A DNA stretch of 20,000 nt from an uncultured virus (IMG/VR IMGVR_UViG_3300046782_000157) (IMGVR_UViG_3300046782_000157), one strand, 5' to 3'. Positions 1-15,834 are shown, counted from the stretch's first letter. Notes: generated by a model not told the origin, from the letters alone. Program-made: numbers and translations.

Positions 1-24
1 GTGACAGAAAGATTGGCGGTTGTG

Positions 25-294
25 TCATTTGTGGATGACGCCGATCAGGCGCTCGATCGGGATGGACATCTGCTTGCCCTTGGCAGGGCCGTTTTTGGGC
101 CAGAACTTCACCCATCGGTTTCCATGTTCGTCGGTGAAGAACTCGACAGGCATCAATTCCCTCTTGGGGTTTCTCGGCCTGTTTACGGGCACAGTCTCTC
201 GTCTGATAAAGTAGATGGCGTTGCCATCTGACTCCTCGACCAAGACCGACTCGACGTTGTCCAAGACGATGTTCTCCTGTGGTGCTTCAACCAT
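25..294 (-). CDS. hypothetical phage protein (89 aa)
   Basis: ORF coupled to the upstream gene by a TAATG overlap at 294; same strand as the whole arm. Confidence 0.75.
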   Translation of the reverse strand: MVEAPQENIVLDNVESVLVEESDGNAIYFIRRETVPVNRPRNPKRELMPVEFFTDEHGNRWVKFWPKNGPAKGKQMSIPIERLIGVIHK

Positions 295-542
295 TATGCC
301 TCCGTGAACTTGTGAATCGCCACGGGATCGGGATCATGGGCGTCGAACAATTCAACACCGATGTCGTCGTTCTCGTAGCGATGGATGAATAAGCCGAAGA
401 TCACACGGTTTCCGATCTTGAAGATGAGGTCGTGCTCCCAATCCATTCGTTCTGGCAATACCGGGAGCTGGATCGCAGCTGTGACGCCAGCCTCATCATA
501 AGTAACGACCTTGACCTTGAGGAGCTTCGGCAGATTTGTCAC
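294..542 (-). CDS. hypothetical protein (82 aa, GTG start)
   Basis: ORF downstream of GAAGGAGGGTC SD (551-561); stop overlaps the next start. Confidence 0.75.
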   Translation of the reverse strand: MTNLPKLLKVKVVTYDEAGVTAAIQLPVLPERMDWEHDLIFKIGNRVIFGLFIHRYENDDIGVELFDAHDPDPVAIHKFTEA

Positions 543-550
543 TTCAGCAT

Positions 551-628
551 GACCCTCCTTCGTGTAATCGGAGTCGGGTGACTCCAGCCCCCGGTGACCG
601 CAGAGTCAACCGGGAGCTGCAACTACCC
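551..628 (-). repeat. intergenic G.G/U.G hairpin element, copy 1, plus SD
   Basis: minus strand GGGTAGTT-G-CAGCT-CCCGGTTGAC..GTCACCGGG-GGCTG-G-AGTCACCC; alternative hairpin GGAGTC-ACCC-GACTCC. Confidence 0.8.
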
Positions 629-958
629 TGACATCCGTCGTATGTATGCTTGTAACGGAGTGTCTCTGTTGTCTCTTTGTTCTTGGATAGTTGCCCATCG
701 ACAATTACCGGGTTCGTAGTTCCCGTCATTGTCGATTCTGTCGATCTGCTTGCCTGGTGGTCGTACTCCCATGTCCGCCAGGAAGTTCTCGAACTTGAGC
801 CAGCGTTCGCAAACCTTAATGCCTCGTGCTCCGTACTTGTAGTACGAATCGGCATTAGGATTCATGCAACGCTGTTTCATTGTCGTCCAGATTCGGTATG
901 TGCTGGTAGGCTTTCCACCCTCACAGTGACCATGAGTTATCTGGCCGCCGGGCTTCAT
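623..958 (-). CDS. HNH endonuclease-like protein
   Basis: YRIWTTMKQRC..YGARGIKVCERW..FENFLADMG..IDRIDNDGNYEPGNCRWAT..EQ..N is the typical pattern of phage HNH homing-endonuclease-like proteins. Confidence 0.85.
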   Translation of the reverse strand: MKPGGQITHGHCEGGKPTSTYRIWTTMKQRCMNPNADSYYKYGARGIKVCERWLKFENFLADMGVRPPGKQIDRIDNDGNYEPGNCRWATIQEQRDNRDTPLQAYIRRMSG

Positions 959-1179
959 CCGACTTGCTGGACTGGGTAGTGCGGCTTGATGTGCTTGTTG
1001 ATATAGCTGCCAACGCTTTGCGCGTTAGCCGCTACAACAGCACGTTGGTATGGCACGCCTGTGTAGGCGTACGTCTTGCCGCTCTTGTATGTGACGTACA
1101 TGATGCTCTTGTCACTATCCCAAGAGATCGACTCGACATTGCTGGAGTGTGGAACTGGAATCGGTCGTCGTGTGCTCAT
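955..1179 (-). CDS. KTSC-domain protein (74 aa; start corrected to ATG 1179)
   Basis: SSNVESISWD..MYVTYKSGKTYAYTGVP..AQSVGSYINKHIK matches the KTSC pattern; ATGA overlap with the upstream stop. Confidence 0.85.
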   Translation of the reverse strand: MSTRRPIPVPHSSNVESISWDSDKSIMYVTYKSGKTYAYTGVPYQRAVVAANAQSVGSYINKHIKPHYPVQQVG

Positions 1180-1373
1180 TTCGCACGCGCTTCCCCGGCC
1201 ATAAACCGCTTGGCTGCTTCCTTGGGCTTCATCCCCGCCATGTACCAGTCGTGCAACAGATCTTCGTCGCACTCGTCGCGCATGGTCAGATAGATTTCGC
1301 CCGTCTCAGCTTCGCGCATCTTGCTGACTTGATCGCCGAAGCGATCGCTCCAGTGAGAGAACGTGTAGCTCAT
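1176..1373 (-). CDS. hypothetical protein (65 aa)
   Basis: ATGA overlaps at both ends. Confidence 0.8.
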   Translation of the reverse strand: MSYTFSHWSDRFGDQVSKMREAETGEIYLTMRDECDEDLLHDWYMAGMKPKEAAKRFMAGEARAK

Positions 1374-1627
1374 GTGATCGAGTCCAGGAATTCTTGCGCT
1401 TCACTTGCTGAGCAAGGATTATCCCACTCATCGAACATGTCTCTAGCTAGCTCCCATGCTGTCGGCAGCCGCTTATTGCGGTACCACAGCAGACAGAGAG
1501 CGTCGAGCCACATGAATGGACGCTGATCACCAGGGCCACGCTCGACATCTGGGATGTTGTCAAGCTTGATGCCGGCCTCGCGCATCTCGCGCTCAGCTTC
1601 TTCCCAGGCGTGTTCGGGCTCGGTCAT
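1370..1627 (-). CDS. hypothetical acidic protein (85 aa)
   Basis: ATGA overlaps at both ends. Confidence 0.8.
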   Translation of the reverse strand: MTEPEHAWEEAEREMREAGIKLDNIPDVERGPGDQRPFMWLDALCLLWYRNKRLPTAWELARDMFDEWDNPCSASEAQEFLDSIT

Positions 1628-1827
1628 GTGATCACCTTGTTGGCCTTCAGCAGATCCACGATCGTCTGGCGGTCGGCGTTGACGTTACCAGTCCGAGCTA
1701 GCCAGAGACAGTAGTCGATGATCTCGCCTCGGTTCTTGTACTCAACGCTGAAGATCTCCTTGTTCGTGGATGTCTTCACCGTTACGACATGTCCGACACG
1801 AGTCACGCTAATGTTGACCTGAGCCAT
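1624..1827 (-). CDS. hypothetical protein (67 aa; start corrected to ATG 1827, MAQVNISV...)
   Basis: TGATG overlap with the upstream stop. Confidence 0.75.
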   Translation of the reverse strand: MAQVNISVTRVGHVVTVKTSTNKEIFSVEYKNRGEIIDYCLWLARTGNVNADRQTIVDLLKANKVIT

Positions 1828-2357
1828 CACCAGCCTTCTTTCGCCGCACAAATTGGGCCAATGCCGAGTGCGCGACTGCGCTCGTCGGTGAGCGTCCGTC
1901 CGCAGATCCCGCAATGGCCCAGCTCGCGCCCGTAGCGCATGCTAGCCTCTTTGGGGTCTTTGGCGATCTCCGTCATGATAGACTTCCTGTGCTCCGTGTT
2001 CTTGATCGGATAGCGTTCATCCGATGCACGGACGCTCAGGAATGTGTAGCCTGCCCACTTGCCCTCGGTCGGCTTGTCCACATGGTAGAACTTCAGGACA
2101 TCGTCCATCGGATCGACCACTGCGTACCTGCCGGCCGGGATGTCAGGCCAGTCTCGACTGACCTGCTTCTTAGGCAGTCCCTTCATGACGTCAATGATCC
2201 GGCTCGCTTCGCCCTTGCTGAGCTTTCGCGTGCCGGCATCGACCTTGGCGATGAAAGCAGCTTGCTTCTCCGTGATCTCATGCTTCTTGGCGAGATCGTG
2301 GAGATACTCAAGCTGATTCTCCGATGCTGGATCCTCTGTCCAGGCTGTCGTTGCCAT
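1827..2357 (-). CDS. DUF6011-like Zn-binding phage protein (176 aa; start ATG 2357)
   Basis: C-terminal CGICGRTLTDERSRALGIGPIC motif; SD GAAGGAGGG just upstream of ATG 2357. Confidence 0.8.
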   Translation of the reverse strand: MATTAWTEDPASENQLEYLHDLAKKHEITEKQAAFIAKVDAGTRKLSKGEASRIIDVMKGLPKKQVSRDWPDIPAGRYAVVDPMDDVLKFYHVDKPTEGKWAGYTFLSVRASDERYPIKNTEHRKSIMTEIAKDPKEASMRYGRELGHCGICGRTLTDERSRALGIGPICAAKEGW

Positions 2358-2359
2358 AT

Positions 2360-2428
2360 GCCCTCCTTCGGGTTTGGTACTCGGCTGAGCACCGGCCCAC
2401 CTCATTGCTGAGATGAGCCGCTGATCAA
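2360..2428 (-). repeat. intergenic hairpin element, copy 2, plus SD
   Basis: TGATCA-G-CGGCT-CATCTCA-GCAA-TGAGGTG-GGCCG-G-TGCTCA; alternative GGTGCTC-AGCC-GAGTACC. Confidence 0.9.
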
Positions 2429-2429
2429 G

Positions 2430-2609
2430 TCACTTCAGGCATTTGAGGCAAGTAATGGGATGTCGAGTCTTGACCAGCACCATTGGATGACCATTCCACG
2501 GCTTCACGGGCTGTCCGCAGACGGGTTCGCCCGATGAGTTCCGCTCATGGTACTTCAAGCTGCTGTCAAGACTGGGCGTGATCTGCATCCTGATTTGAAG
2601 AGTCACCAT
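2430..2609 (-). CDS. small His/Cys (putative Zn-binding) protein, 59 aa, not in the ORF track
   Basis: MVTLQIRMQITPSLDSSLKYHERNSSGEPVCGQPVKPWNGHPMVLVKTRHPITCLKCLK; TGATG overlap at 2609; fills the gap exactly. Confidence 0.75.
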   Translation of the reverse strand: MVTLQIRMQITPSLDSSLKYHERNSSGEPVCGQPVKPWNGHPMVLVKTRHPITCLKCLK

Positions 2610-2797
2610 CAGTTACGCCCGATTTCGCATGCCCGTGTCTGACATTCTGGATCGCTGGACTTAACTTGGTTGGCCAGCATCAGAATGTATTGCGGCCCGC
2701 CATGATAATCCCCACCACAGCAAGCTGTGCCATCGCTGCGAAGACTGTGCACTGTTCGCCACTTTCGATGAACAAGCACTTGACGTGTCTTCACCAT
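2609..2797 (-). CDS. small His/Cys (putative Zn-binding) protein, 62 aa (start ATG 2797)
   Basis: SD GAAGGAGGGTCAAATG; H-x9-CG...C-x4-C. Confidence 0.8.
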   Translation of the reverse strand: MVKTRQVLVHRKWRTVHSLRSDGTACCGGDYHGGPQYILMLANQVKSSDPECQTRACEIGRN

Positions 2798-2799
2798 TT

Positions 2800-2864
2800 G
2801 ACCCTCCTTCTGGTACTCGGCTGAGCACCACACCCTGCCTTCGAGGGCAGGATGCGCTACTCAG
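2800..2864 (-). repeat. intergenic hairpin element, copy 3, plus SD
   Basis: TGAGTA-G-CGCAT-CCTGCC-CTCGAA-GGCAGG-GTGTG-G-TGCTCA; alternative GGTGCTC-AGCC-GAGTACC. Confidence 0.9.
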
Positions 2865-2867
2865 TTG

Positions 2868-3047
2868 TTATCCGTGGTATTCATTGCTGAGGTGTGAGAC
2901 GATATGGATGTGAGTATGTACCGGAGCGTTTTCCAGAAGATGACGGATGTAGAACGTCGCTGTTGCCAGCTCCGTGAACTTCTTGAACGTGCCTTCGCCG
3001 GATTCGCCACCCATCCACACTTCGTACACAACGTGTGGTTCGTCCAC
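2868..3047 (-). CDS. hypothetical protein (59 aa; GTG start 3047)
   Basis: SD GAAGGAGGGTAGC directly before GTG. Confidence 0.75.
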   Translation of the reverse strand: MDEPHVVYEVWMGGESGEGTFKKFTELATATFYIRHLLENAPVHTHIHIVSHLSNEYHG

Positions 3048-3050
3048 GCT

Positions 3051-3116
3051 ACCCTCCTTCTGGTGCTCTTCTGAACACCGAGCCTCACAATTGTCTTTGT
3101 GAGACTCGCTACTCAG
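3051..3116 (-). repeat. intergenic hairpin element, copy 4, plus SD
   Basis: TGAGTA-G-CGAGT-CTCACAA-AGACAA-TTGTGAG-GCTCG-G-TGTTCA; alternative GGTGTTC-AGAA-GAGCACC. Confidence 0.9.
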
Positions 3117-3418
3117 CTGACTGTTTCTTGGTAGATGATACCTCTGATCATCGGGGCCCACTCGGGCGAGTCAGGCCCGTAGTTGGTCGCTGAGAACACG
3201 TCCATGTCGGCCCTGACGACACTCGGCGTCTCGTTGTCAGCTGCTGGTTCCTCGGGGTCGAGCTTCTGACGGATCTCTAGCTTGAACATCGGCGTGCCCA
3301 TGCTGTCGCAGATGATCATCTCGACATCACCTTCGGGAAGTGAGACTCTTGATACGAGAGAGAGATCATCGGCAACTTCGAGATACCACGGAGTTGGAAT
3401 CAGCTCGGGTTCATCCAT
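3113..3418 (-). CDS. hypothetical acidic protein (101 aa)
   Basis: SD GAAGGAGGGTCAGATG; stop TGA lies in the base of element 4. Confidence 0.85.
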   Translation of the reverse strand: MDEPELIPTPWYLEVADDLSLVSRVSLPEGDVEMIICDSMGTPMFKLEIRQKLDPEEPAADNETPSVVRADMDVFSATNYGPDSPEWAPMIRGIIYQETVS

Positions 3419-3420
3419 CT

Positions 3421-3489
3421 GACCCTCCTTCGTTGCGGTACTCGGATGAGTACCGCGCCCACCCCATGCGGGGAAGACGCGCTACTCAT
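3421..3489 (-). repeat. intergenic hairpin element, copy 5, plus SD
   Basis: ATGAGTA-G-CGCGT-CTTCCCC-GCAT-GGGGTGG-GCGCG-G-TACTCAT; alternative GCGGTACTC-ATCC-GAGTACCGC. Confidence 0.9.
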
Positions 3490-3623
3490 TTCTTTTTCTC
3501 GCAGTCGTCACAGATGCCGGCCACGATGTTGCTTCCGGTGATCTGTGCTTGAAATAGATCCTGCGATGTGACCTGGACGTACTTGAATTTGTGACACTTG
3601 GTGCAGTAGCCAACAAGTCTCAT
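3486..3623 (-). CDS. small CxxC..CxxC zinc-finger peptide, 45 aa, not in the ORF track
   Basis: MRLVGYCTKCHKFKYVQVTSQDLFQAQITGSNIVAGICDDCEKKK; ATGA overlap at 3620-3623; stop in element 5. Confidence 0.8.
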   Translation of the reverse strand: MRLVGYCTKCHKFKYVQVTSQDLFQAQITGSNIVAGICDDCEKKK

Positions 3624-3856
3624 CCTGGGCACTCGCTTTCAAGATGAACGAGATCGAGATCACCCTGGCTGTCGATCGCATCGTAGACTCTCAGCCCGAA
3701 CTTGATGGGCACGCGAATGCGATTTGGCTGGGTTTTCCAGGTTTTTACCTGGCCGTTCACTCGCCAGCGTTGACACGTACCGTCGGCATTCTTGTAGAAG
3801 TCATGATGCAGAACGTCGCCGGGCTTCAACGCCTTGGCTTGTTCTAGCGTGATCAT
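3620..3856 (-). CDS. hypothetical phage protein (78 aa)
   Basis: ATGA overlaps at both ends; RWRVNGQVKTWKT..R..VPIKFGL pattern resembles a common phage hypothetical family (from memory, not searched). Confidence 0.8.
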   Translation of the reverse strand: MITLEQAKALKPGDVLHHDFYKNADGTCQRWRVNGQVKTWKTQPNRIRVPIKFGLRVYDAIDSQGDLDLVHLESECPG

Positions 3857-4074
3857 GTCGACACCTGGCCCTGGGGCGAGATGCCGCCGTAGATCGGCTG
3901 ACCATGATCAGTCCAGTGCATCGTGAAGCACAGATAGTTGTTCGGCAGATCGAGTCCGCCCTTCTGAACAACCACGTTTTCAAGTTTCGGGTTGTTAAGA
4001 AGAACATCAATGCTTTTCTTCTGCGCTGTAGTCATGGTATTGAAAGCCTCTTGGGTCATCTTGACCTTGATCAC
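3853..4074 (-). CDS. hypothetical protein (73 aa)
   Basis: overlaps both neighbours; protein-like composition. Confidence 0.75.
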   Translation of the reverse strand: MIKVKMTQEAFNTMTTAQKKSIDVLLNNPKLENVVVQKGGLDLPNNYLCFTMHWTDHGQPIYGGISPQGQVST

Positions 4075-4454
4075 TTATGTGACCTCCATGCGACGATCTT
4101 GTCTCCGGGCAGGAAGATGACTGGCTTCTCCATCTGCGAGTGAAGAAAGCGATGCTTGTGCTTAACAACCTGTTCGCCCTCTGTCACCAGGCCACAGTCG
4201 CCCTCGATGTAGTACACACCGAATTGGAATGTGACGTAGTGCTCGAACTCTTGCCCTGACCATTTCGATTCAAGCTTGTTGTCTGGATCGAACGTCCAGG
4301 TGCCGAGATCCGAGAACTTCTTGCCAATCTGATATTCTCTGTCTGGATCTTCATCCATGTAGGCCACGGTGTAGCAGAAGTCAAGCATCTGCTGATCCCA
4401 GATGAGATCCTTGCGACGCTTACCCTTCCGCTCCACATATATGTTGAGTGGCAT
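4071..4454 (-). CDS. hypothetical protein (start corrected to ATG 4454, MPLNIYVE...)
   Basis: SD GAAGGAGGGCAGAATG. Confidence 0.75.
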   Translation of the reverse strand: MPLNIYVERKGKRRKDLIWDQQMLDFCYTVAYMDEDPDREYQIGKKFSDLGTWTFDPDNKLESKWSGQEFEHYVTFQFGVYYIEGDCGLVTEGEQVVKHKHRFLHSQMEKPVIFLPGDKIVAWRSHK

Positions 4455-4457
4455 TCT

Positions 4458-4522
4458 GCCCTCCTTCGTGGTGTCGTATGAACACCGACCCACTCACTGT
4501 TAGGTGAGTGAGTCGCTATTCA
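4458..4522 (-). repeat. intergenic hairpin element, copy 6, plus SD
   Basis: TGAATA-G-CGACT-CACTCAC-CTAACA-GTGAGTG-GGTCG-G-TGTTCA; alternative GGTGTTC-ATAC-GACACC (one bulge). Confidence 0.9.
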
Positions 4523-4807
4523 ATCTTCATCCGATCTCAGCTTCTCTGTGAGCAGTCTATGGATCTCGCGGAGGATAGCTTGCTGATCGGACGGACTGAA
4601 CCTCTGCTCCCAGATCGGCTTCTTGACTGGCGTCCTGGGTGGCTTTGCTGCTGGCTGTGGCTTCGGCTTGGCAGTGTACTCGCGAATGTCGTTTTTCCTG
4701 ATAACATCCTTGATCCCACGACCGTGCAATCGCCACCATGCCATGATGAGTGCGATGGTGAACATTGCTGCCGGGATGTCGATGAAGATGAACTTGACGT
4801 AACTCAT
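4520..4807 (-). CDS. membrane-anchored protein (95 aa; start corrected to ATG 4807, MSYVKFIF...)
   Basis: N-terminal hydrophobic helix, basic Pro-rich tail; ATGA overlap with the 4804-4947 ORF. Confidence 0.75.
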   Translation of the reverse strand: MSYVKFIFIDIPAAMFTIALIMAWWRLHGRGIKDVIRKNDIREYTAKPKPQPAAKPPRTPVKKPIWEQRFSPSDQQAILREIHRLLTEKLRSDED

Positions 4808-4947
4808 GATGAAGGCGATAGTGCTACTAGGAACACGTACACGCCTATGATCAAGAGCGCGATCACAATTCCCAACACGAGGAGTCGGGACGCCATCCAG
4901 AGAATGACGAACTGATCTTGCCATCGTTTTGGGATCTTGATGGTCAC
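4804..4947 (-). CDS. small single-pass membrane peptide, 47 aa, not in the ORF track
   Basis: MTIKIPKRWQDQFVILWMASRLLVLGIVIALLIIGVYVFLVALSPSS; GTGA and ATGA overlaps at its ends. Confidence 0.65.
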   Translation of the reverse strand: MTIKIPKRWQDQFVILWMASRLLVLGIVIALLIIGVYVFLVALSPSS

Positions 4948-4981
4948 CTTACATCGATGCTGTTCCCGAGTGGTTTCATTT

Positions 4982-5053
4982 GACCCTCCTTCGGATGATG
5001 CTCATTTGAGCACCCGCCAACACACTCTGCGATGTGCCAGCGGCTGATCAAAT
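4982..5053 (-). repeat. intergenic hairpin element, copy 7, plus SD
   Basis: ATTTGATCA-G-CCGCT-GGCACAT-CGCAGA-GTGTGTT-GGCGG-G-TGCTCAAAT; alternative GGTGCTC-AAAT-GAGCATC. Confidence 0.9.
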
Positions 5054-5281
5054 ACGAACAGCGATGAAGTCTCGCAGCCTTCCGTTGCCGATTAGGATTG
5101 TTGCGATCCACTGGTGGGTGTCGTTTCCTGTTCGGCGCTCGCGGATGATGCGTTGTCTGTTTCCCGCAAAATCATGCAAAGCGTGCATCGCGGTTGGTGC
5201 TTCGATGACAGCAACTTTGCGGAATGTCCCTGCGCCTCTGCCATCGTACCACGTTCTGATCTCGAATGTTCCCATTGTCAT
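5048..5281 (-). CDS. hypothetical protein (77 aa)
   Basis: ATGA overlap; stop in element 7. Confidence 0.75.
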   Translation of the reverse strand: MTMGTFEIRTWYDGRGAGTFRKVAVIEAPTAMHALHDFAGNRQRIIRERRTGNDTHQWIATILIGNGRLRDFIAVRI

Positions 5282-5649
5282 CTCAGCAGAACCTCCGGCC
5301 CGAACCAGATGTGGTTCATGACCGTGACGACACGATGTGCGATCTTATGAGCCATCCAACCATCACGATGAGGGTTGTCTTCTTCGAGGCCAGCGTTCTC
5401 TGCCTCGATCTCGATGTTGTCTGTGATCGGCACCATGAGCATCTTCATCAGCTCTGGTGGACATGCTTCCCAAATGCAAGCAGGGTTGCCCCACTTGGCA
5501 TCCTCGATCGCAATACGTTCTGCGAGCTTAGGCGTGAGCCCACGCTCGTGAACGCATTCCGAACAGAGCCATGTTCTGACGATGATGTTGTCGTCGGTGC
5601 TTTCCGTGACCATGGTTGTCGGACATCCGAAACACCTGATGATTGCCAT
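5278..5649 (-). CDS. CxxC..CxxC zinc-finger-containing protein (start ATG 5649)
   Basis: SD GAAGGAGGGTCAAATG; CFGC...CSEC. Confidence 0.8.
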   Translation of the reverse strand: MAIIRCFGCPTTMVTESTDDNIIVRTWLCSECVHERGLTPKLAERIAIEDAKWGNPACIWEACPPELMKMLMVPITDNIEIEAENAGLEEDNPHRDGWMAHKIAHRVVTVMNHIWFGPEVLLR

Positions 5650-5651
5650 TT

Positions 5652-5719
5652 GACCCTCCTTCGTTGTGATGAATACCAACCGCTCCGGGGGACAACTCCC
5701 GGAGCAGCTGCTAGTCACC
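5652..5719 (-). repeat. intergenic hairpin element, copy 8, plus SD
   Basis: GGTGACTA-G-CAGCT-GCTCCGGGAG-TTGT-CCCCCGGAGC-GGTTG-G-TATTCATC. Confidence 0.85.
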
Positions 5720-6005
5720 AGCTTTTGTACGGTGACAGCGCCTTGACGCGATCGAGATATTCCGAGGCGTCGTGAAGCTGTGTACCTTCTTCATCGCAAG
5801 TGTCGAACTGGTCGAACTTGTCGATGAAAGCCCACTCGCCAGCGTCACCCATGTAGATGTAGCCGACGAGTCTGCCGTCAATCTCGTACACGTAGCACTC
5901 GTAGTTCGTGTCGATGTCTGGGTAATCACCAATGATGTCTTTGGCATACAGCTCTGCTGTGTGCTCTAGATCCTGACGAAACTCAGACTCAGTCATTTCT
6001 TTCAT
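5715..6005 (-). CDS. small, highly acidic protein (96 aa)
   Basis: 24 Asp/Glu versus 8 Lys/Arg by hand count; ATGA overlap; stop in element 8. Confidence 0.85.
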   Translation of the reverse strand: MKEMTESEFRQDLEHTAELYAKDIIGDYPDIDTNYECYVYEIDGRLVGYIYMGDAGEWAFIDKFDQFDTCDEEGTQLHDASEYLDRVKALSPYKSW

Positions 6006-6205
6006 GGGATCTGCTTGACGAAGACGGCTGCTCTGAACTTGGTGTCAACGCGATTGAAGCCGTGGTTGATCAGCTTCTCGATCAGACGTTCACCGTCGTC
6101 TACGTGAATGATCTTGACGGATTCGATCTCTTTCTGATCGATGATGGACACGACTTTCACTTGCTTGTCGCTGACCGGGATCAGTGAAACGCGCTTAACG
6201 CTCAC
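6002..6205 (-). CDS. hypothetical protein (67 aa, GTG start)
   Basis: GTGA/ATGA overlaps at both ends. Confidence 0.8.
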   Translation of the reverse strand: MSVKRVSLIPVSDKQVKVVSIIDQKEIESVKIIHVDDGERLIEKLINHGFNRVDTKFRAAVFVKQIP

Positions 6206-6423
6206 GCTGTCACCTGATCCTTTGTGATCCAGAGCTGGCCGGAACCTGTGCCCAAGCTGTCGTACGCTCGATACAGCTTCCAGTGCTTATCGCAGCCATG
6301 ACCCCACGGCCCGTAACGAGTTTTGAAGTCGTACGGCCCTGGTGTCTTCATGCCTTCTTGATTGCAGAAATCGCAATCGGGAATGCGAGGCACGACGCAG
6401 ACTTTTCCCTTTTCTGCTTTCAT
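6202..6423 (-). CDS. small putative Zn-binding phage protein (73 aa)
   Basis: CDFC...YDFKTRYGPW...CDKH...LGTGSGQ; SD upstream. Confidence 0.8.
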   Translation of the reverse strand: MKAEKGKVCVVPRIPDCDFCNQEGMKTPGPYDFKTRYGPWGHGCDKHWKLYRAYDSLGTGSGQLWITKDQVTA

Positions 6424-6430
6424 TCTGTGC

Positions 6431-6499
6431 GACCCTCCTTCGTTTTGGTGGTTTGAACACCAGCCCTGTCGGATTATATCTGACAGAGCTGCTACTCAA
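6431..6499 (-). repeat. intergenic hairpin element, copy 9, plus SD
   Basis: TTGAGTA-G-CAGCT-CTGTCAGAT-ATA-ATCCGACAG-GGCTG-G-TGTTCAA; short alternative TGGTG..CACCA. Confidence 0.9.
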
Positions 6500-6819
6500 T
6501 ACCTGCTTTTCGAGACGAGCTTGCCGTTGTCGAAGCAGAACTGATAGCTGCCGTTCTGGCTGAGAATGCCGTAGTAGATACAACGGCTGTTCAATGTGCC
6601 GCCGTAGCCACCGACAGTTGTGTCGTCGCTGCTCTGAGGACTGCCGAACGAGCTTCTCACGTAGCTTTCGCTGACGCCAATTGGCATGATAGCGAAAGCA
6701 TTGGGATCGACCTGAGCACTTGACTTATCGCTCGCGTCGGTGATCCCGTGAAGTGCGAATGCTCCACCGCCTACAAAGAGGCTGAGTAGCAGCAGAATGG
6801 TGATGAATGCGCCTTTCAT
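6496..6819 (-). CDS. exported/membrane-anchored protein with SmpA/BLIP-like pattern (start ATG 6819)
   Basis: signal-like MKGAFITILLLLSLFVGGGAFA; F..MPIGVS..YV...FGSP...CIYYG....YQFCFDNGKLVSK. Confidence 0.7.
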   Translation of the reverse strand: MKGAFITILLLLSLFVGGGAFALHGITDASDKSSAQVDPNAFAIMPIGVSESYVRSSFGSPQSSDDTTVGGYGGTLNSRCIYYGILSQNGSYQFCFDNGKLVSKSRY

Positions 6820-6824
6820 TTTAC

Positions 6825-6909
6825 GACCTTCCTTCGTTTTGTTTTTATTTGGTTCTGTGTCTGCTGACACAAGCCGCTACACGTTGTCCTGAGTAGCAGC
6901 TTCTATCAG
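6825..6909 (-). repeat. intergenic hairpin element, copy 10, plus SD
   Basis: CTGATA-G-AAGCT-GCTAC-TCAGGACAACGT-GTAGC-GGCTT-G-TGTCAG; alternative TGTGTC-AGCA-GACACA. Confidence 0.9.
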
Positions 6910-7226
6910 TTGACGATACTGTGATCCTTGATGCTGATCCAGCCGCATTCGCCTTCAATACACATCACGATTCCTCGCAATGTCGGTCTGCTGTCAAGCC
7001 CTTCGCCGCCGCCATAGCGGTTGCTAGGATCGAAATCACTGATCCAGACACAGATTTCATATCCGAGTTGCTCGGCGTAACAGTAGAAGATGATCTGATC
7101 ACCTTGGACACCAGCTACTGTCCAGTGAGGGCTGACATATTCGCCTTCATACTGATTGGCGATCCAGTCAGCTTTGACTTCGCGGTCAGTTGCTGTCCAA
7201 ACTTTTGCTATGAACTCTGGCTTCAT
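6906..7226 (-). CDS. hypothetical protein (106 aa; start corrected to ATG 7226, MKPEFIAK...)
   Basis: SD GAAGGAGGGCCAATG; stop in element 10. Confidence 0.8.
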   Translation of the reverse strand: MKPEFIAKVWTATDREVKADWIANQYEGEYVSPHWTVAGVQGDQIIFYCYAEQLGYEICVWISDFDPSNRYGGGEGLDSRPTLRGIVMCIEGECGWISIKDHSIVN

Positions 7227-7228
7227 TG

Positions 7229-7298
7229 GCCCTCCTTCGTTTTTGTGTTCTGTAGTACAAGCCGCGTCGGTTGTCCACGACGCAGCTTCTGCTACAGA
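7229..7298 (-). repeat. intergenic hairpin element, copy 11, plus SD
   Basis: TCTGTAGCA-G-AAGCT-GCGTCG-TGGACAAC-CGACGC-GGCTT-G-TACTACAGA. Confidence 0.9.
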
Positions 7299-7390
7299 TG
7301 TCCGACTGCGCGCCCAATGAGTGCGCAGATGATGACGACGATTGGCGCAGCCGTGATATACGTTGGCCAAGCATCTTTCCACTTGTACAT
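7292..7390 (-). CDS. small membrane peptide, 32 aa (MYKWKDAWPTYITAAPIVVIICALIGRAVGHL)
   Basis: SD AAGGAAGGT before ATG 7390; stop TAG in element 11. Confidence 0.7.
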   Translation of the reverse strand: MYKWKDAWPTYITAAPIVVIICALIGRAVGHL

Positions 7391-7394
7391 GTGT

Positions 7395-7455
7395 ACCTTC
7401 CTTTGTTTTTTATCGTTCAAGGCCGAGCGGGTTGTCCTTCGCTCGACCTTCAACG
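7395..7455 (-). repeat. intergenic hairpin element, copy 12, plus SD
   Basis: CGTT-G-AAGGT-CGAGCG-AAGGACAACC-CGCTCG-GCCTT-G-AACG. Confidence 0.85.
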
Positions 7456-7464
7456 CGCGGCTTG

Positions 7465-7803
7465 TTACGCCGCGATATGCTTCGCACAGCGGTGAACTCG
7501 CTTGCCGTCTTTGAATAGCGACATGATCGCGAGTGCTCCGCACTTCTCGCCTTTGACCGCTTGTCCGTTATACGTTGAGCCCGCAGGCCCGAGTTTTGTA
7601 CGCTTCGTGCGCTTCTTCTTGAAGAACACTGTCGTCGTTTTGCCTACGAATGCGTCGCACGCTTCGGCGACTGCTAGCTCGCGGTCGATTGCGGGCGTAG
7701 CGGTTGCTCCGCTTATTCTTGAATCCCGGCTTTGTCCCGGGCTTCTTGCGGACTTCGTCGATACCGGCCCTCTGCTTTTTGCCGGCTTTTTACGTTTTGC
7801 CAC
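7465..7803 (-). CDS. basic hypothetical protein (112 aa, GTG start), possibly nucleic-acid binding
   Basis: SD GAAGGAGGGTCAGTG; Lys/Arg rich; C-terminal KCG...CAKH. Confidence 0.8.
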   Translation of the reverse strand: MAKRKKPAKSRGPVSTKSARSPGQSRDSRISGATATPAIDRELAVAEACDAFVGKTTTVFFKKKRTKRTKLGPAGSTYNGQAVKGEKCGALAIMSLFKDGKRVHRCAKHIAA

Positions 7804-7986
7804 TGACCCTCCTTCGGGGCTTATTGAATTGCTCCTCGATTCGGATTATTCGGTTGAATCGAGGACGTGCGGAAGCGGGACGTACGCTTACACGGGGGTT
7901 TTTGACGGCGTGCTTATGCCTTGCCGCTTTTCCCGCTCGGGTGGTGCGTCCCTCCTCCTTCGGTCGCTTAGGCGCGACCGGGGAGG

Positions 7987-8013
7987 GGTCGAGAGAATCG
8001 GATTCTCTCGACC
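7987..8013. repeat. perfect 13-1-13 palindrome GGTCGAGAGAATC-G-GATTCTCTCGACC
   Basis: read directly; a related copy lies at 8530-8560. Confidence 0.9.
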
Positions 8014-8031
8014 TCCCCCGCTCGATCCCTG

Positions 8032-8406
8032 CTAGGCGCGAGCCTTACGATACGCGCCGGACGCGAGCCGTCCCGGTCGCTTCGCGGCTACCGCGTAGCC
8101 GCCGAGGCGGTCTACGTTCGCCCGGGTCGGGCGGAACCCGAAGACGATCGGGAGGGCGTACGCTCGGAGATCCGTCGGCGACTCGGCGAGTACCGCCCGA
8201 ACGTCGGCCGCGCGTACGTCTTCGATCCGCTCGAACGAGCCGACCCGACTCGGGATTAGACCCGCGTCGCGGCGAGCCGCGTAAGAGATCTCGCGAGTCG
8301 ACCACTTCTTCTCGCCGCCGTAAACGGCCGCGTCGATCTCGGCGTCGGTCTTTCCGGCCGCCGCGAGCTTCGCGATTTTGTTCTCGTTACTTTTACTTAC
8401 GGACAT
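8032..8406 (-). CDS. first gene of the leftward arm, hypothetical (124 aa)
   Basis: SD CGAAGGAGG followed by AACGAA-ATG; Ala/Arg-rich, protein-like sequence. Confidence 0.8.
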   Translation of the reverse strand: MSVSKSNENKIAKLAAAGKTDAEIDAAVYGGEKKWSTREISYAARRDAGLIPSRVGSFERIEDVRAADVRAVLAESPTDLRAYALPIVFGFRPTRANVDRLGGYAVAAKRPGRLASGAYRKARA

Positions 8407-8529
8407 TTCGTTCCTCCTTCGGAACTCCGGAATTGCCGTTCCGGTATCGGGAACCGCGGTACGCGGCTCGCGAGACGCGATACCGGAAATTGAAATCGGG
8501 AATCCGGTCGCGCCTCGCGAGCCGTCCGA

Positions 8530-8560
8530 GGTCGAGAGAATCGAATCGAATCTCTCGACC
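8530..8560. repeat. inverted repeat GGTCGAGAGA-N11-TCTCTCGACC
   Basis: same 10-bp arms as 7987-8013. Confidence 0.9.
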
Positions 8561-8937
8561 CCGGCGGCCCGCCGAAGGAAGGAAGGTCTACGGCTCGCGC
8601 GCCTACGCTCTAGAGCCCGGGCGCCGCCCCTATCTACGGGGGACGGCGACCCTACGCGCGTCCGATCGAGTCCCCCGGGCGGCTATAGGGCGGGCGGGGG
8701 AGGGGAAGCCGTAGACCGCCCCTCCGAAGCCCGCGCGTAGCGATCGCGCGGCTCCTCCGACTAGTACCGCTCGCCTCTCTCCTCGGCTCGACCGAGGGAT
8801 AACGTCGGCGCCCGTCTCCGGCTCCCTAAGCCTATTAGGGGGTCGGACGGGAATCCGCGTAACCCTAAACCGAGATCCCCGCCACGTAGCCTCCCTAGGC
8901 TACGGGAGGGTGGAGGGTTGGATACTAGGGGGTCTAG

Positions 8938-9279
8938 AAAATCCCTGCTAATAGGGACTATTCAGTGATCGGACGGGACGGGCTAGACCCGCATCAATTA
9001 GCCCGAAAAATGTAGAAAAGGGACTCCGGCCACGTACCGGCAAACCTGAGGTGAAACACAAAATTTGCTCAATTGCAATTGCTAAAAACAGTGTTAGAAA
9101 CAAATTGATGTAAAAATCATGAAAACCACCCCTTTTCCAGCTAAAAATCACAAAAATCATGAAAAATCACCCATCAATATGAAAAACATACAGAAAAATC
9201 CAAAATAAAAACCAATTCTGCAGAAAACCCCTGGAAATCAACACCGTTTTCCAAATAGAAAACGCACCAATTCACTTCA
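8938..9279. other. AT-rich non-coding region with phased A-tracts (candidate pac/terminus or origin)
   Basis: A/T tracts starting at 9112, 9122, 9133, 9143, 9152, 9162, 9182, 9194, 9202, 9224, 9235; AAAAATCA x4; lies between the divergent arms. Confidence 0.7.
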
Positions 9280-9498
9280 TACGCGCGTACGCGCCCGCGA
9301 CCCCTCCACGTTCTGCAGATTTTCTCCGCCTACGCGCGTACACGCCCGTACGGGAGGGCACTCTCGCGCGTAAGGCGGGCGCGGGCGTAGCGCGCGCGAA
9401 CATGAGTTGTTAATAGAACTTAAATGCGCGCGCCCCCGCGCACCCGCCCCCGCGCGCGACACAAATAACAACTAAATGCGCGCGCGTACGTGCGCGTA
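9280..9498. repeat. cluster of CGCGCGTA/TACGCGCGTA motifs and a TAAATGCGCGCGC direct repeat
   Basis: TACGCGCGTA at 9280 and 9331; CGCGCGTA at 9365 and 9481; TAAATGCGCGCGC at 9421 and 9473. Confidence 0.8.
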
Positions 9499-9584
9499 AG
9501 AGCGCGACCCCCATCCGACCCCCATCCGACCCACCCCGCAGGTAGAATCACCCCACACTCCACACCCCACAAAGGAGGCGCACA

Positions 9585-9782
9585 ATGTCCACCACGCAGA
9601 TCCAGCAAAGCAAGACACAAAACAAGGGAACCTGCGACTTTCAATGGGGGCCGGGCTGCACCGCAAAGACATCCCCAGACCAGACTCACCTCTGCCAACT
9701 CGCAAGAGGACACACAGCCAACCAGTGCGAATGCTACTACTGCGGGCTGAAGCAGGTCAACGCCAGCCGCTCCCGAGTGTAA
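9585..9782 (+). CDS. small Cys/His-rich protein (65 aa), first gene of the rightward arm
   Basis: SD AAAGGAGG at 9571-9578; six Cys. Confidence 0.75.
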   Translation: MSTTQIQQSKTQNKGTCDFQWGPGCTAKTSPDQTHLCQLARGHTANQCECYYCGLKQVNASRSRV

Positions 9783-9901
9783 CCCCCGACCCGACCCGAA
9801 CCGAACCAAAACTCGGCAAGCGTCGGAGTCCGAAACGCGCTAGAGTCCCGAAATACGCCCCTCTGCCCCTCCACTCTGCCCCTCCACGGAAAGGAGTTCA
9901 C

Positions 9902-10267
9902 ACGAAAGCCCTAGATCGCCTTCATTGGCACACTCACATCGACGGGCTCGACTCGATCGAGCGGCAGCTTCGCCAAATGCGAAAGGATCTACATCATATG
10001 AGCACACAGATGGACGAACTCAACACCGCGATTCAGAATCTCGTCTCTGACGCGCAAGCCAACTCCGATGCCGTCAATGCACTGATCGCCAAGATCGACG
10101 CCGTGGGCGTCACGGCGGATCTCTCGGATGAGATCCAGGCCGTCAAGGATGCCAGCGCCAGCCTCGAAGCCAGCAAGGAGGCAGCCGACGCCGTGCTGAA
10201 CCCGCCGGCAGCCCCGGCCGAAGTGCCGGCGACCGATCCCAACGCTCCAGAGGTCAACCCTCTGTAG
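9902..10267 (+). CDS. coiled-coil, Ala/Asp-rich hypothetical protein; start uncertain (ACG 9902 or ATG 9998)
   Basis: 3' part of ORF 9644-10267 is protein-like; the strongest SD (AAAGGAG 9890-9896) precedes an in-frame ACG. Confidence 0.65.
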   Translation, partial: TKALDRLHWHTHIDGLDSIERQLRQMRKDLHHMSTQMDELNTAIQNLVSDAQANSDAVNALIAKIDAVGVTADLSDEIQAVKDASASLEASKEAADAVLNPPAAPAEVPATDPNAPEVNPL

Positions 10268-10365
10268 CCCAACACCAACACCAGGACTCACAATGTGGGG
10301 CGCGCACAGTAGGAGGGGCTGCGCGCCCCGCAACACGTAACAACAACAGAAAGGAAACAGGACGC

Positions 10366-10488
10366 ATGCCAGCCCGTAGTCAAGCACAAAGACGCTGGGC
10401 CTACGGCGTCAAAGGAGCGAAGTGGGCCAAGAAGCACCATTTCAATAACAAGGGCAAGCTGCCAGCCCGCTCAAGAAAGCGGAAGTAG
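10366..10488 (+). CDS. small basic peptide, 40 aa (MPARSQAQRRWAYGVKGAKWAKKHHFNNKGKLPARSRKRK), not in the ORF track
   Basis: purine-rich SD region upstream; MPAxSxAQxR...LP pattern recalls DUF3008-like small basic proteins. Confidence 0.7.
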   Translation: MPARSQAQRRWAYGVKGAKWAKKHHFNNKGKLPARSRKRK

Positions 10489-10491
10489 GCA

Positions 10492-11556
10492 GTGGCAGCA
10501 GTAGCCATGCCCAAATGGTGGGCCGACAAGAGACTCCGCAAAGAAGCTCTGGAGTTGAAGCTCGGACTCAGGAAACGGCCCAGCGACGTACCACACATTC
10601 CGGCGGGCAGCCCGGTGGACAGGGAACTGAACAAGTTCCAGAAGTGGGCGCTTTGGATCGCAGCTGGCAAGAATCCACAGACGCGCCCGAAGGACATCTG
10701 GAAAGCTGTACCTGACAAGATGTATTGGGACGTTCTGACCCAGTACATTAAGCTGCACAGCACCCCGCCACCGCAAAAACCACCGATTCAGCCCAGCCTT
10801 CCACCTAGCAAGTGGAAGAACACGCCGTGGGTGGTCAAGCACGTACATACCAGCCACGGTTTGCGCAAGGACGACGGCGTCTGGACGATCGACCAGTTGA
10901 TCGCCAGGGCCAAAACGGCCAAATGCCAAGCGATCATCTGCCAGATTGGTGGAGACACACCCGACCCAGACTGGGCAGAGAACGCCCGAGCACTCTACAA
11001 GGCCGGAAAAGCAGCAGGTCTGAGGATTGGGGCCTGGGGCCGGATGGACTACGTCAATTGGGAAACGGTCAAGGCCATGATCAAGAGCGTTCTGCCGTTG
11101 GACGGCGTTCTGGCTGATATCGAGGGTCGATGTCAGGATCAGGCGCTACCCGAGAAGCTCGTCAAGGAGTTTCCCAACCTACCAATGGGGGTGATCGCTA
11201 CCGGAGCAATTGATCAGTCTCTCGACGGCCTCTCTCCACCAGCAGTTGCTCAACGTTGGGGTGACCACTTCGACTTCGTGGGGCAGGACTACCACAAAGC
11301 CGACAACCCGATGACGCCTGATACTGGTGAGAACTTCGTCTACTGGCGCTCGACTGCCAAGGTCACCAGTGGGTTCAGGCATCTGCCCGAGGCGAAGGGG
11401 CGTTGGCACATTCCGGTGGTCATGCCGAGTGCCGAGACGTGTCCGCCGCTAGAGGCTCATCGTGCTTGGCTCAGGGACTACACGCCGCACTACGGCGTCT
11501 GGGACGGCGAGCTGGTGGAGGCCAATGGCGAGTGGGGCGTGTTCGCCAGTATTTAA
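10492..11556 (+). CDS. two-domain protein with Pro linker and a putative glycoside-hydrolase-like (TIM-barrel) domain
   Basis: AIICQIG...GKAAGLRIGAWG...DGVLADIEG resembles GH25/GH18-like barrels; PPPQKPPIQPSLPP linker; function inferred. Confidence 0.55.
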   Translation: MAAVAMPKWWADKRLRKEALELKLGLRKRPSDVPHIPAGSPVDRELNKFQKWALWIAAGKNPQTRPKDIWKAVPDKMYWDVLTQYIKLHSTPPPQKPPIQPSLPPSKWKNTPWVVKHVHTSHGLRKDDGVWTIDQLIARAKTAKCQAIICQIGGDTPDPDWAENARALYKAGKAAGLRIGAWGRMDYVNWETVKAMIKSVLPLDGVLADIEGRCQDQALPEKLVKEFPNLPMGVIATGAIDQSLDGLSPPAVAQRWGDHFDFVGQDYHKADNPMTPDTGENFVYWRSTAKVTSGFRHLPEAKGRWHIPVVMPSAETCPPLEAHRAWLRDYTPHYGVWDGELVEANGEWGVFASI

Positions 11557-11581
11557 CATCTAACCAATGAAAGGAGAGCAG

Positions 11582-12241: not shown

Positions 12242-12348
12242 CTCGACAAGCTACCGAATTGATCTTCGGGTAGGATCGCGGGGCGTGAGACCCCTCGCGC
12301 ACCGGGGGAGCGGGTTCCTAGATACGCAAAGGCCCGCTCCCCACTATA

Positions 12349-13282: not shown

Positions 13283-13329
13283 CCAAGCCGTTTCTACGCC
13301 CAGCCGCGATCCAGGGTAGGATCGCGGTC

Positions 13330-14345: not shown

Positions 14346-14407
14346 GTGAACTCATCAACCCTGCCGATCTCGGCAAGATCTCACTTCCAGCCGGCACCGC
14401 AGATGCG

Positions 14408-15826: not shown

Positions 15827-15834
15827 GGAGGGGC

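Follow-up and report, generated by a model that had tools for sequence, protein, structure and literature searches.

The window analysed here, a stretch of 20,000 nucleotides from an uncultured phage, raises the question of what occupies the gaps between the small early genes of its minus-strand arm. A sequence-only reading had described the same hairpin in every sizeable gap, twelve copies in total, each with an invariant G.G mismatch and an invariant U.G pair. We found that the hairpin is one recurring folded RNA signal that stands in almost every gap. All twelve claimed copies were recovered at their sites on the minus strand (Table 1), each of the twelve 5-bp core pairs had been read correctly, and the G.G mismatch was counted in 12 of 12. 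Within positions 1-8031 of the window, 12 of the 13 gaps longer than 40 nt contain a unit, so that "every" gap holds with one exception, gap 7804-8031, in which another kind of hairpin is found.

Table 1. Hairpin units of the window and, below them, the anti-SD loop hairpins of related genomes.
Feature	Position	Strand	R1 (bits)	G.G	Core	Stop codon	Second hairpin	Other features
Unit 1 (subtype I)	7388..7463	-	33.3	7451/7418	AAGGT/GCCTT	TAA, 16 nt upstream	none	GGACAAC in loop; 3' part: A-rich linker, then SD AAGGAAGG, then ATG
Unit 2 (subtype I)	7224..7301	-	40.5	7289/7258	AAGCT/GGCTT	TAG in lower stem	none	loop GGACAAC; SD GAAGGAGGGCC, ATG
Unit 3 (subtype I)	6817..6915	-	35.4	6903/6870	AAGCT/GGCTT	TGA in lower stem	6856-6871	loop GGACAAC; SD GAAGGAAGGTC
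Unit 4	6421..6504	-	46.2	6492/6460	CAGCT/GGCTG	TGA in lower stem	6447-6461, weak	SD GAAGGAGGGTC
Unit 5	5647..5723	-	43.0	5711/5676	CAGCT/GGTTG	TGA in lower stem	none	GTTGTCC in loop, the complement of the subtype-I loops
Unit 6	4977..5056	-	39.9	5044/5013	CCGCT/GGCGG	TGA in lower stem	4997-5014	11-codon ORF after SD
Unit 7	4452..4528	-	48.9	4516/4485	CGACT/GGTCG	TGA in lower stem	4470-4486	
Unit 8	3416..3494	-	43.6	3482/3453	CGCGT/GCGCG	TGA in lower stem	3437-3454	lower stem a perfect 7 bp
Unit 9	3045..3121	-	49.0	3109/3078	CGAGT/GCTCG	TGA in lower stem	3062-3079	start codon GTG
Unit 10	2795..2869	-	46.5	2857/2828	CGCAT/GTGTG	TAA, 13 nt upstream	2812-2829	out-of-frame TGA kept in lower stem
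Unit 11	2355..2433	-	46.0	2421/2392	CGGCT/GGCCG	TGA, 11 nt upstream	2376-2393	another TGA, out of frame, in lower stem; MFE is the two-hairpin fold
Unit 12	548..632	-	34.6	620/584	CAGCT/GGCTG	TAG in lower stem	570-585	SD GAAGGAGGGTC
Anti-SD loop hairpin, L003	5592							
Anti-SD loop hairpin, L005	3372							
Anti-SD loop hairpin, L006	2808							
Anti-SD loop hairpin, L007	9852							

A strict geometry scan, which demanded an A-U or U-A pair, the G.G mismatch, 4 bp, the U.G pair and at least 4 apical bp, gave 11 matches on the minus strand and none on the plus strand in window positions 1-8000; the copy at 3482 was missed due to a single apical mismatch. In 200 dinucleotide shuffles the same scan found a mean of 0.08 and a maximum of 2 matches, and a chance origin of the window's copies is excluded. 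Over the whole record of 129,757 b the scan gave 34 minus-strand and 6 plus-strand matches, and 30 of the 34 fall within the two small-gene arms. Model R1 recovered these copies only, all of them in the small-gene arms and on the strand that carries the genes, and found no copy in 80 unrelated viral loci.

A set of 43 copies was collected from this phage (phage A), a sister phage in the same record (phage B) and three related viral contigs; the A/B orthologues within the set are non-independent. In these copies 93.2% of 770 pairing cells are paired, compared with 60.8% for shuffled sequences and no more than 43% after sliding of the partner, the value being inflated in the core and apex, where pairing was demanded by the scanner that picked the copies. 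Lower-stem columns 4-9 were free of this demand, yet they covary. The covariation claimed from the window alone proved strong, with double changes at all 18 of 18 pairs, and RNAalifold arrived independently at the same fold, leaving unpaired the G.G mismatch, which is invariant in 43/43 copies. The U.G pair had also been taken as invariant; this is so for 12/12 copies in the window but not across the wider family, where UG occurs in 35 of 43 copies, CG in 6, GU in 1 and a gap in 1. As had been proposed from G.U pairs, the element is strand-specific: 111 G.U against 12 A.C combinations were counted over the 43 copies (47 against 9 in the six lower-stem columns without scanner demand), which means that the sense strand is the folding strand. 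These data support the hairpin as a structure-defined element of the sense strand.

The upper stem, that is the distance from the G.G to the loop, is free in sequence and measures 11-13 bp in 32/43 copies (mode 12), placing the mismatch about one helical turn below the loop. The lower stem has 6-8 bp in 25/43 copies and the whole helix 18-23 positions in 35/43. The arms of the lower stem are semi-conserved, 7-8 nt long and 28-50 nt apart, and it is their pairing rather than their sequence which is conserved. No described family had been recognised for this geometry, and comparison of 20 kb with Rfam 15 likewise gave no match at gathering score. Two sub-threshold matches were obtained, RsmY with 22.4 bits (E 0.083; gathering score 57), overlapping unit 12, and sR1 with 18.1 bits (gathering score 45).

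The element is not a single hairpin, as the sequence-only reading had it; an alternative second hairpin had been overlooked. A segment further downstream offers the 3' half of the lower stem another possible partner in 35/43 copies. The resulting helix of 5-7 bp takes in this 3' strand, the mismatch's 3' G and the final core base, at which it begins, adjoining the mismatch. Among 20 copies of the same length this helix is 100% paired and 5 of its 7 pairs are doubly changed. The positions shared by both helices covary three ways, C/G/C in 28, A/T/A in 3 and T/A/T in 1 in the first set, and A/T/A in 25 and T/A/T in 7 in the second. Since the second hairpin covaries too, the unit is an RNA with two exclusive folds, and any mechanism has to account for both of these mutually exclusive conserved helices. 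The long fold is the stabler by 3.8 kcal/mol on average over the 43 copies, while the two-hairpin fold is as stable or stabler in 7 of them. About half of the SD region is unpaired in either fold (accessibility 0.52 vs 0.53), so a switch of folds does not gate the SD. The second hairpin is missing from 8/43 copies, subtype-I copies among them, and these retain the G.G.

All 12 units sit on one strand, where each separates a stop codon from the SD that follows it, in the order upstream stop codon, hairpin of about 20 bp, conserved 11-nt ribosome-binding motif GAAGGAGGGTC and next start codon. Upstream stop codons had been placed in the basal stem of nine copies, and in 9/12 they do start 5-6 nt 5' of the G; an automatic rule scores 8/12, as it mis-scored the copy at 3482, whose actual reading is -6. 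Applied to the whole set, the automatic rule places the start of the stop codon 5-7 nt 5' of the G.G in 32/43 copies. Units occur only at non-overlapping gene junctions and separate blocks of 1-6 overlapping genes, in agreement with the proposed division. A sigma-70 scan of 9.6 kb gave 3 promoter-like sites (5.2 in shuffles), none in any of the 12 units, and a terminator scan gave 5 minus-strand terminator-like sites, all above 9000 and none in the arm or the units. Each unit is RNA-level punctuation within what we infer to be one long leftward early transcript.

Our tentative preference, held at somewhat less than even confidence, is to read the unit as an intercistronic site of RNase III-type processing and stability. 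A double-strand-specific endonuclease, host RNase III being the most plausible one, would recognise the long fold as its substrate, count off roughly one turn of helix from the loop and nick the 3' strand at or beside the G.G. This would leave the upper hairpin as the end of the upstream message, whose 3' end it would shield. The second hairpin would in turn shield the 5' end of the downstream message, which would begin precisely at that hairpin's base, with the ribosome site remaining free after the cut. The long transcript would thereby be split into independently stable messages of 1-6 genes, and the units would double as joints for gene-cassette exchange between related phages. PMC3867540 gives 22 bp as the ideal RNase III substrate and describes mismatches or loops at the target as leading to a cut of one strand that leaves a stabilising 3' hairpin, and PMC6212723 reports that RNase III sites of E. 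coli are enriched in intergenic regions within transcripts. The modelled helix of the units, with its mismatch about one turn below the loop, is consistent with such processing. The earlier proposal of a processing or protein-binding site stands as far as a structure-defined element of the sense strand is concerned, but not in its fixed U.G or its single hairpin. Several points weigh against RNase III. The lower stem, at 6-8 bp, falls short of a complete half-site for RNase III, and no RNase was recognised among the phage's proteins. A host enzyme would be free to act anywhere, yet the units stand only in the early arm of small genes. The copies lacking the second hairpin keep the G.G, so 5'-end protection is not the whole story. 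The pairing-based choice of copies and the non-independent A/B orthologues also count against this reading, and the invariant G.G and the subtype-I GGACAAC would fit at least equally well with binding by a sequence-specific protein.

A ribosome-operated conformational switch or insulator, acting without cleavage, is a less probable explanation, though one to be taken seriously. A ribosome at the lower-stem stop codon would melt the long helix, releasing its 3' strand to form the second hairpin, so that the unit would reset local mRNA folding at every cassette boundary, keep the strong ribosome site clear of upstream sequence and keep the untranslated gap folded and hidden from Rho and RNases; it may also pass ribosomes on to the next gene. 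The fixed place of the stop codon agrees with such a switch, as do the conservation of both exclusive helices, the small energetic lead of the long fold, the half-unpaired SD region and the restriction of units to junctions where genes do not overlap. However, the near-equal SD accessibility predicts no on/off effect on initiation. The real stop is found 11-16 nt further upstream in 3/12 copies of the window, and the lower-stem TGA kept out of frame points to conservation for pairing, not termination. A switch also leaves unexplained the invariant G.G and the constant upper stem. The persistence of the G.G amid covarying surroundings argues for a dedicated RNA-binding protein of phage or host, possibly an antitermination factor, translational regulator or stabiliser, that would recognise the widened groove of the G.G, a fixed distance below the loop, and, in the promoter-proximal subtype, the loop GGACAAC as well; we regard this as unlikely. 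The GGACAAC loop is conserved on differing stems in 3 promoter-proximal copies of phage A and 4 of phage B, with GGACAAA in the copy at L003 1318, whereas the loops of copies outside subtype I are unconstrained. A 112-aa protein whose N-terminus is rich in Lys/Arg is the product of the gene that lies directly upstream of unit 1, and weak relatives of this protein are encoded at the head of the arm in two related phages, but position alone links it to the units. Comparison of the arm proteins with Pfam and PHROGs gave no RNA-binding family (0/30; matches only to DUF6011, KTSC and HNH), and a binding protein would leave the second hairpin unexplained.

It is very unlikely that the units are primarily recombination joints of mobile cassettes, providing shared homology at the DNA level for swaps of early genes with the RNA fold secondary. 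The units cover about 12% of the arm and 8 of 20 A/B homology-block ends lie inside or within 1 nt of them; short matches of >80% identity connect units at non-orthologous places, and phages A and B have different cassettes between their units. A precedent is found in the promoter-early stem-loop (PeSL) cassettes of T4-type phages, which combine a strong sigma-70 promoter with a terminator and, according to PMC2839356, are likewise small repeated intergenic stem-loop cassettes among small non-essential early genes, at boundaries of shuffled modules. The units differ from PeSL in lacking a promoter-like site (0 units) and a terminator tail, and what they conserve is the fold and the ribosome site. 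Moreover, exchange by homology needs conserved sequence, while these stems change sequence and keep pairing; the G.U asymmetry indicates selection on one strand, and intergenic gaps are natural breakpoints regardless. Joints would account for the spread of units, not for the keeping of the fold, the G.G and the alternative helix. Least probable of all are factor-independent terminators or attenuators without a U-tract that would end or damp transcription after each cassette. The G+C-rich hairpins are stable (-24 to -45 kcal/mol) and lie directly 3' of stop codons, and the alternative helix formally resembles a terminator/antiterminator pair. Still, a T-rich tail occurs in 0/12 units, confirming the reported absence of a U-tract, and the units do not qualify as intrinsic (rho-independent) terminators; the helix of the long fold spans the place of a would-be U-tract. 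With no promoter-like site after any unit, downstream cassettes would be left unexpressed, and to place twelve terminators along 7 kb of a single arm would be self-defeating.

The early polycistronic mRNAs of T7 and SP82/SPO1 have RNase III processing hairpins between genes. These signals resemble the units as hairpins between the cistrons of a long early transcript that consist of about two helical turns, interrupted by a non-Watson-Crick element, and have no U-tract; a hairpin of this sort would, as has been proposed, stay on the upstream message and stabilise it. All 12 units share the position between cistrons, in a presumably single transcript, and the family also agrees in its helix, some two turns (about 20-22 bp) in length and locally distorted at the putative target. 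They differ in having a 1x1 G.G mismatch in place of a larger internal loop, a stop codon built into the lower stem, and a conserved alternative second hairpin that shares the 3' strand. They are also dense, 12-15 copies in about 10 kb, and their cleavage is only predicted. Another comparison is offered by the SAS/ESAS repeats of Cluster K mycobacteriophages, described in PMC3203893, the function of which was still open in 2025 (PMC12699233). As in the units, a conserved SD-containing motif is located just before the starts of some non-structural genes, in one orientation and in one genome arm, with inverted repeats ahead and a presumed role in expression. The phage studied here is of another type, a myovirus, its motif is GAAGGAGGGTC, and the 13-bp SAS consensus GGGATAGGAGCCC had 0 matches in the window at up to 2 mismatches. 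According to PMC3203893, ESAS arms are 17-bp inverted repeats conserved in sequence, with a spacer of 4-13 bp; the units do not form such a repeat pair, given how their arms are conserved and spaced, and their stems carry the G.G and enclose a long upper stem.

None of the unit loops in the window contains an anti-SD sequence. The sequence GACCCTCC has a single minus-strand occurrence in the whole record, inside a coding region of phage B. In the relatives, one hairpin per genome carries a loop that is the exact complement of that genome's own SD motif (Table 1).

The repeated intergenic hairpin on the minus strand, each copy of which (a unit) is named by the window position of its 5' G, is a genuine and well-supported family of structured RNAs, located in the early operon of uncultured myophages that form a small clade. 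The twelve copies reported for the window by the sequence-only reading were all recovered by minus-strand reading and a geometry scan, and the twelve core pairs it listed (the five base pairs beside the G.G mismatch) were exact. The strict scan of window 1-8000 returned 11 matches on the minus strand and 0 on the plus strand, against a mean of 0.08 and a maximum of 2 in 200 dinucleotide shuffles; the twelfth copy, 3482, was outside the strict scan and has one apical mismatch. The whole record gave 34 minus-strand and 6 plus-strand matches, with 30 of the 34 located in two small-gene arms. The element had been said to fill every sizeable minus-strand gap; the arm has 13 gaps of more than 40 nt, and this held for 12 of them; the remaining one has a different hairpin. 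The units separate blocks of 1-6 coupled genes, as was proposed, because all other gene junctions overlap.

The 129,757-b record consists of two related phage genomes of ~65 kb, phage A and phage B, placed head-to-tail with a blockwise identity of 72-95%. Their junction is near window position 8534 (65089/65090 in the whole record), so the two halves of the window come from different phages. Two variants may truly be concatenated here, or the two-genome record may stem from faulty assembly or binning. With its portal, capsid, sheath, baseplate J and tape measure, phage A is a myovirus, and its replication genes (SNF2 helicase, PD-(D/E)XK nuclease, primase/MCM-like, ThyX) are located downstream of the small-gene arm on the same strand. 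Nearly all arm proteins are without family, the exceptions being DUF6011, KTSC and an HNH-like protein. The terminase of phage B is at most 43% identical to that of any GenBank phage record, and megablast of window 1-8000 against GenBank phages gave no match.

The alignment comprised 43 curated copies: the 12 of the window, 3 from elsewhere in phage A, 15 from phage B, and 6, 3 and 4 from the related contigs L003, L005 and L007, respectively. These contigs were among 30 IMG/VR loci (594,405 b) fetched with the SNF2 helicase, and their copies lie upstream of the helicase and on its strand. Pairing was found in 93.2% of 770 cells (pairs k and 77-k), compared to 60.8% in shuffled alignments and at most 43.2% with slid partners, for copies that were ascertained by a pairing-based scan and whose A/B orthologues are not independent. 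Covariation, which the sequence-only reading had named as a check, was evident: all 18 pairs were doubly changed, and the score was 0.867 versus 0.239, with 0 of 500 shuffles as high. RNAalifold without a supplied structure gave the same helix with compensatory changes in 17 of 17 pairs, leaving columns 11/66 (the G.G) and 8/69 open. In many orthologous copies of the two phages the upper stems are entirely different in sequence. The only invariant columns were the two G of the mismatch; the U.G pair, also claimed to be invariant, does not vary in the window but does so in the family (UG 35, CG 6, GU 1 and one gap, n=43). There were 111 G.U/U.G cells versus 12 A.C/C.A cells, and 47 versus 9 in the six lower-stem columns which the scanner did not require to be paired; selection for the fold therefore acts on the sense strand.

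The upper stem, from G.G to the loop, is free in sequence and 11-13 bp long in 32 of 43 copies (mode 12, range 10-16). The lower stem has mostly 6-8 bp, and the whole helix comprises 18-23 positions in 35 of 43. Three pairs below G.G, at column 8/69, a pyrimidine-pyrimidine mismatch was present in 13 of 43. An automatic rule placed the first base of a stop codon 5-7 nt 5' of the G in 32 of 43 copies, and 22 have TGA at -6. For the window, the earlier count of nine stop codons in twelve basal stems was reproduced, and two of the three exceptions keep an out-of-frame TGA at the site; what conserves the triplet is therefore its pairing with TCA of the 3' strand.

A second hairpin, absent from the earlier description, is possible in 35 of 43 copies. 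Here the last base of the core, together with the mismatched 3' G and the 3-5 bases that follow, pairs with a nearby downstream segment (typically GGTGCTC with GAGTACC), forming a hairpin of 5-7 bp whose end is 1-21 nt upstream of the SD. All 35 entered a scripted count; in 20 of them, which have the same 18-nt length and were chosen since the hairpin was predicted, pairing was 100%, five of seven pairs were doubly changed and 0 of 500 shuffles scored as high. Covariation links the bases shared by the two folds to each of their partners. Triples (5' partner/shared/3' partner) at the last core base were C/G/C in 28 copies, A/T/A in 3, T/A/T in 1 and T/G/C in 3, and at the next paired base A/T/A in 25, T/A/T in 7 and A/T/G in 3. 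The 3' G of G.G meets C (30) or U (5) only in the second fold. The long fold, i.e., the main hairpin, was favoured in 36 of 43, with a mean advantage of 3.8 kcal/mol, and the two-hairpin fold was the MFE structure in several.

A covariance model of the element, applied at E<=1 to the 129,757-b record, returned exactly its 30 copies, all on the minus strand. On the 30 related loci it gave 22 matches, 13 seeds and 9 new, all on the helicase strand, with weaker copies in the more distant L009 and L014. An IMG/VR pattern scan with the two lower-stem arms gave at least 120 stretches, and 80 unrelated viral loci carrying both arms (419,086 b) were searched with the model as a specificity control. 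None of the 80 matched; the lower-stem-arm pattern matches are therefore due to chance. The Rfam comparison proposed earlier yielded no match at threshold. The family is apparently undescribed; our literature search returned analogues only, which is no proof that the element is unpublished. To our knowledge, only a few model phages (T7, SP82, T4-type PeSLs) are known to carry such signals between their early genes. In kind, the element belongs with intercistronic processing or stability signals, as far as we infer its function, and it is new in its G.G ruler geometry, in having a stop codon within the stem and in its two covarying exclusive folds.

What is established for the units is a sense-strand fold with an invariant G.G at ruler-like distance, two exclusive helices, a position between stop codon and SD, and the lack of terminator and promoter signals. 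A search for RNA sequencing runs with window 400-7900 listed none. The best fit, tentatively favoured at somewhat below even chances, is a site for a double-strand-specific endonuclease of the RNase III type. Bacterial mRNA is protected by 5'-terminal hairpins. According to PMC3867540, the ideal RNase III substrate has 22 bp, and mismatches or loops limit cutting to one strand, leaving a stabilising 3' hairpin; cleavage is enriched in intergenic regions within transcripts (PMC6212723), and U-G wobbles are enriched in the distal box (PMC11780869). A nick on the 3' strand beside G.G would leave an upstream message terminating in the upper hairpin and a downstream message starting exactly at the base of the second hairpin, and both conserved folds would therefore have a job. 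A ribosome-operated switch or insulator acting without cleavage is a less probable account, perhaps a one-in-several prospect, and would draw on the stop codon and the exclusive folds. The ribosome site was unpaired equally in both (0.52 vs 0.53), which rules out SD occlusion; such a switch therefore does not gate initiation by hiding the SD. We consider a dedicated protein-binding site unlikely; the invariant G.G could serve it, and no phage-encoded RNase or RNA-binding protein was recognised among 30 arm proteins and 58 phage A proteins, or by PHROGs on the 30, a search that left out two long ORFs (918 and 1123 aa) straddling locus borders.

Eight of the 20 ends of A/B homology blocks fall in or adjoin units, which cover ~12% of the arm, and short matches of >80% identity connect units at non-orthologous sites. 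The units therefore also behave as joints of exchangeable cassettes, like the PeSLs of T4-type phages (PMC2839356). That such a DNA-level role is the main one seems improbable, the fold being selected on the sense strand. The terminator reading had no support (T-rich tail in 0 of 12 window units), and terminators of a U-less kind are the least likely of these accounts. The promoter reading had none either (sigma-70-like site on the gene strand in 0 of 12), and the Cluster K SAS consensus did not occur in the window. The comparable SAS/ESAS repeats of mycobacteriophages were still without known function in 2025 (PMC12699233). With up to one mismatch allowed, the arm has 10 copies of the SD motif GAAGGAGGGTC on its minus strand, against 0.4 expected in the whole window.

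More speculatively, and with a low likelihood, the unit may be a translation-sensing, two-state RNA 'full stop'. Ribosomes terminating on the lower-stem stop codon would hold the 3' strand in its second-hairpin pairing and leave the boundary intact; once they stop arriving, the 20-bp helix and its G.G would form, and RNase III or a dedicated phage factor would recognise it and cut or seize the boundary. The lifetime of each early cassette would then be set by its own translation, a boundary mechanism that we do not know from phage operons. The subset with GGACAAC loops, together with one or two GTTGTCC copies, could add loop-loop contacts or a protein handle.

This subset comprises the promoter-proximal copies (three in A, four in B), which have in common an AAGNT core and, on differing stems, a GGACAAC loop; most lack the second hairpin. 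The exact complement, GTTGTCC, is in the loops of unit 5711, of its phage B orthologue and of a copy in L003, and in a small hairpin directly before the helicase SD of phage A; the loop pattern recurs in phage B and L003. The loops may pair with each other or offer a protein handle, but they are an unexplained lead only, because GGACAAC is common in this genome (~20 per strand vs 8 expected). Anti-SD loops were absent from the twelve window units. In each of four relatives, one hairpin carries in its loop a perfect complement to the extended SD motif of the phage itself (GACCCTCC against SD GGAGGGTC, GTACCCTCC against SD GGAGGGTAC); that of L005 adjoins the helicase gene, just upstream.

Locations of the arms, loop subtypes and neighbouring features (L001-L007, IMG/VR loci fetched via the helicase)
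Feature	Location	Strand	Remark
Right-hand arm of phage A	window 1-8530	-	densely packed small genes
Left (structural) arm of phage B	window 8534-20000		carries terminase
GGACAAC loops	window, units 7451, 7289, 6903	-	
GTTGTCC loop, related contig	L003 3484		
GTTGTCC hairpin before helicase SD	whole record 54172 = L001 14172		
Anti-SD hairpin	L003 5592-5645		
Anti-SD hairpin	L005 3372-3430		
Anti-SD hairpin	L006 2808-2866		
Anti-SD hairpin	L007 9852-9910		
First intergenic gap of arm	window 7804-8031	-	hairpin at ~7980-8022
Counterpart of gap hairpin	whole record ~129100-129200		phage B
112-aa protein	window 7465-7803	-	
Weak relatives of 112-aa protein	G001 1220-1372; G002 59572-59763		two related phages
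111-aa protein	window 623-958	-	
Short repeats	window 8420-8530	-	upstream of first gene (8032-8406)
SD and 11-codon ORF	window 4944-4978	-	after unit 5044
Three consecutive hairpins	L001 15164-15290 (whole record 55164-55290); L002 8196-8310		

The family is an unusually clean case, with dozens of copies, a free stem sequence, a single non-canonical pair that never varies and keeps a fixed distance to the loop, and two exclusive helices both established by covariation. A short transcript treated with purified RNase III, or structure probing, would therefore allow a direct test. The element is a candidate natural 'insulator' part for operon building, and it marks the joints of early-gene cassette exchange between related uncultured phages.

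Several neighbouring features were recorded. In the first intergenic gap of the arm, TAG is followed by a perfect ~19-bp hairpin and then by SD-like repeats; the hairpin has a diverged counterpart in phage B. Upstream of the first gene of the arm, the G+C-rich genome end has several short repeats of the TTCCCGAT/TTCCGGTA type, a candidate operator or promoter region. Directly before the first unit lies a gene for a 112-aa protein with a Lys/Arg-rich N-terminus and without family match; its weak relatives stand at the head of the arm in two related phages, each then followed by a unit. The 111-aa protein matches the DNA-binding part of HNH homing endonucleases (PHROGs, E 2.5e-40) with no match in Pfam, and could be a domain that stands alone within the early arm, or a remnant. 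After unit 5044, a strong SD serves only an 11-codon ORF; the stop of this ORF and the GTG start of the following small gene overlap, which hints at a leader peptide or a coupling device. In L001 and L002, three consecutive hairpins precede a gene of 159-171 aa, the first of them with G.G-type geometry, yet without a match to the covariance model; the array may be a different structured leader or a small RNA.
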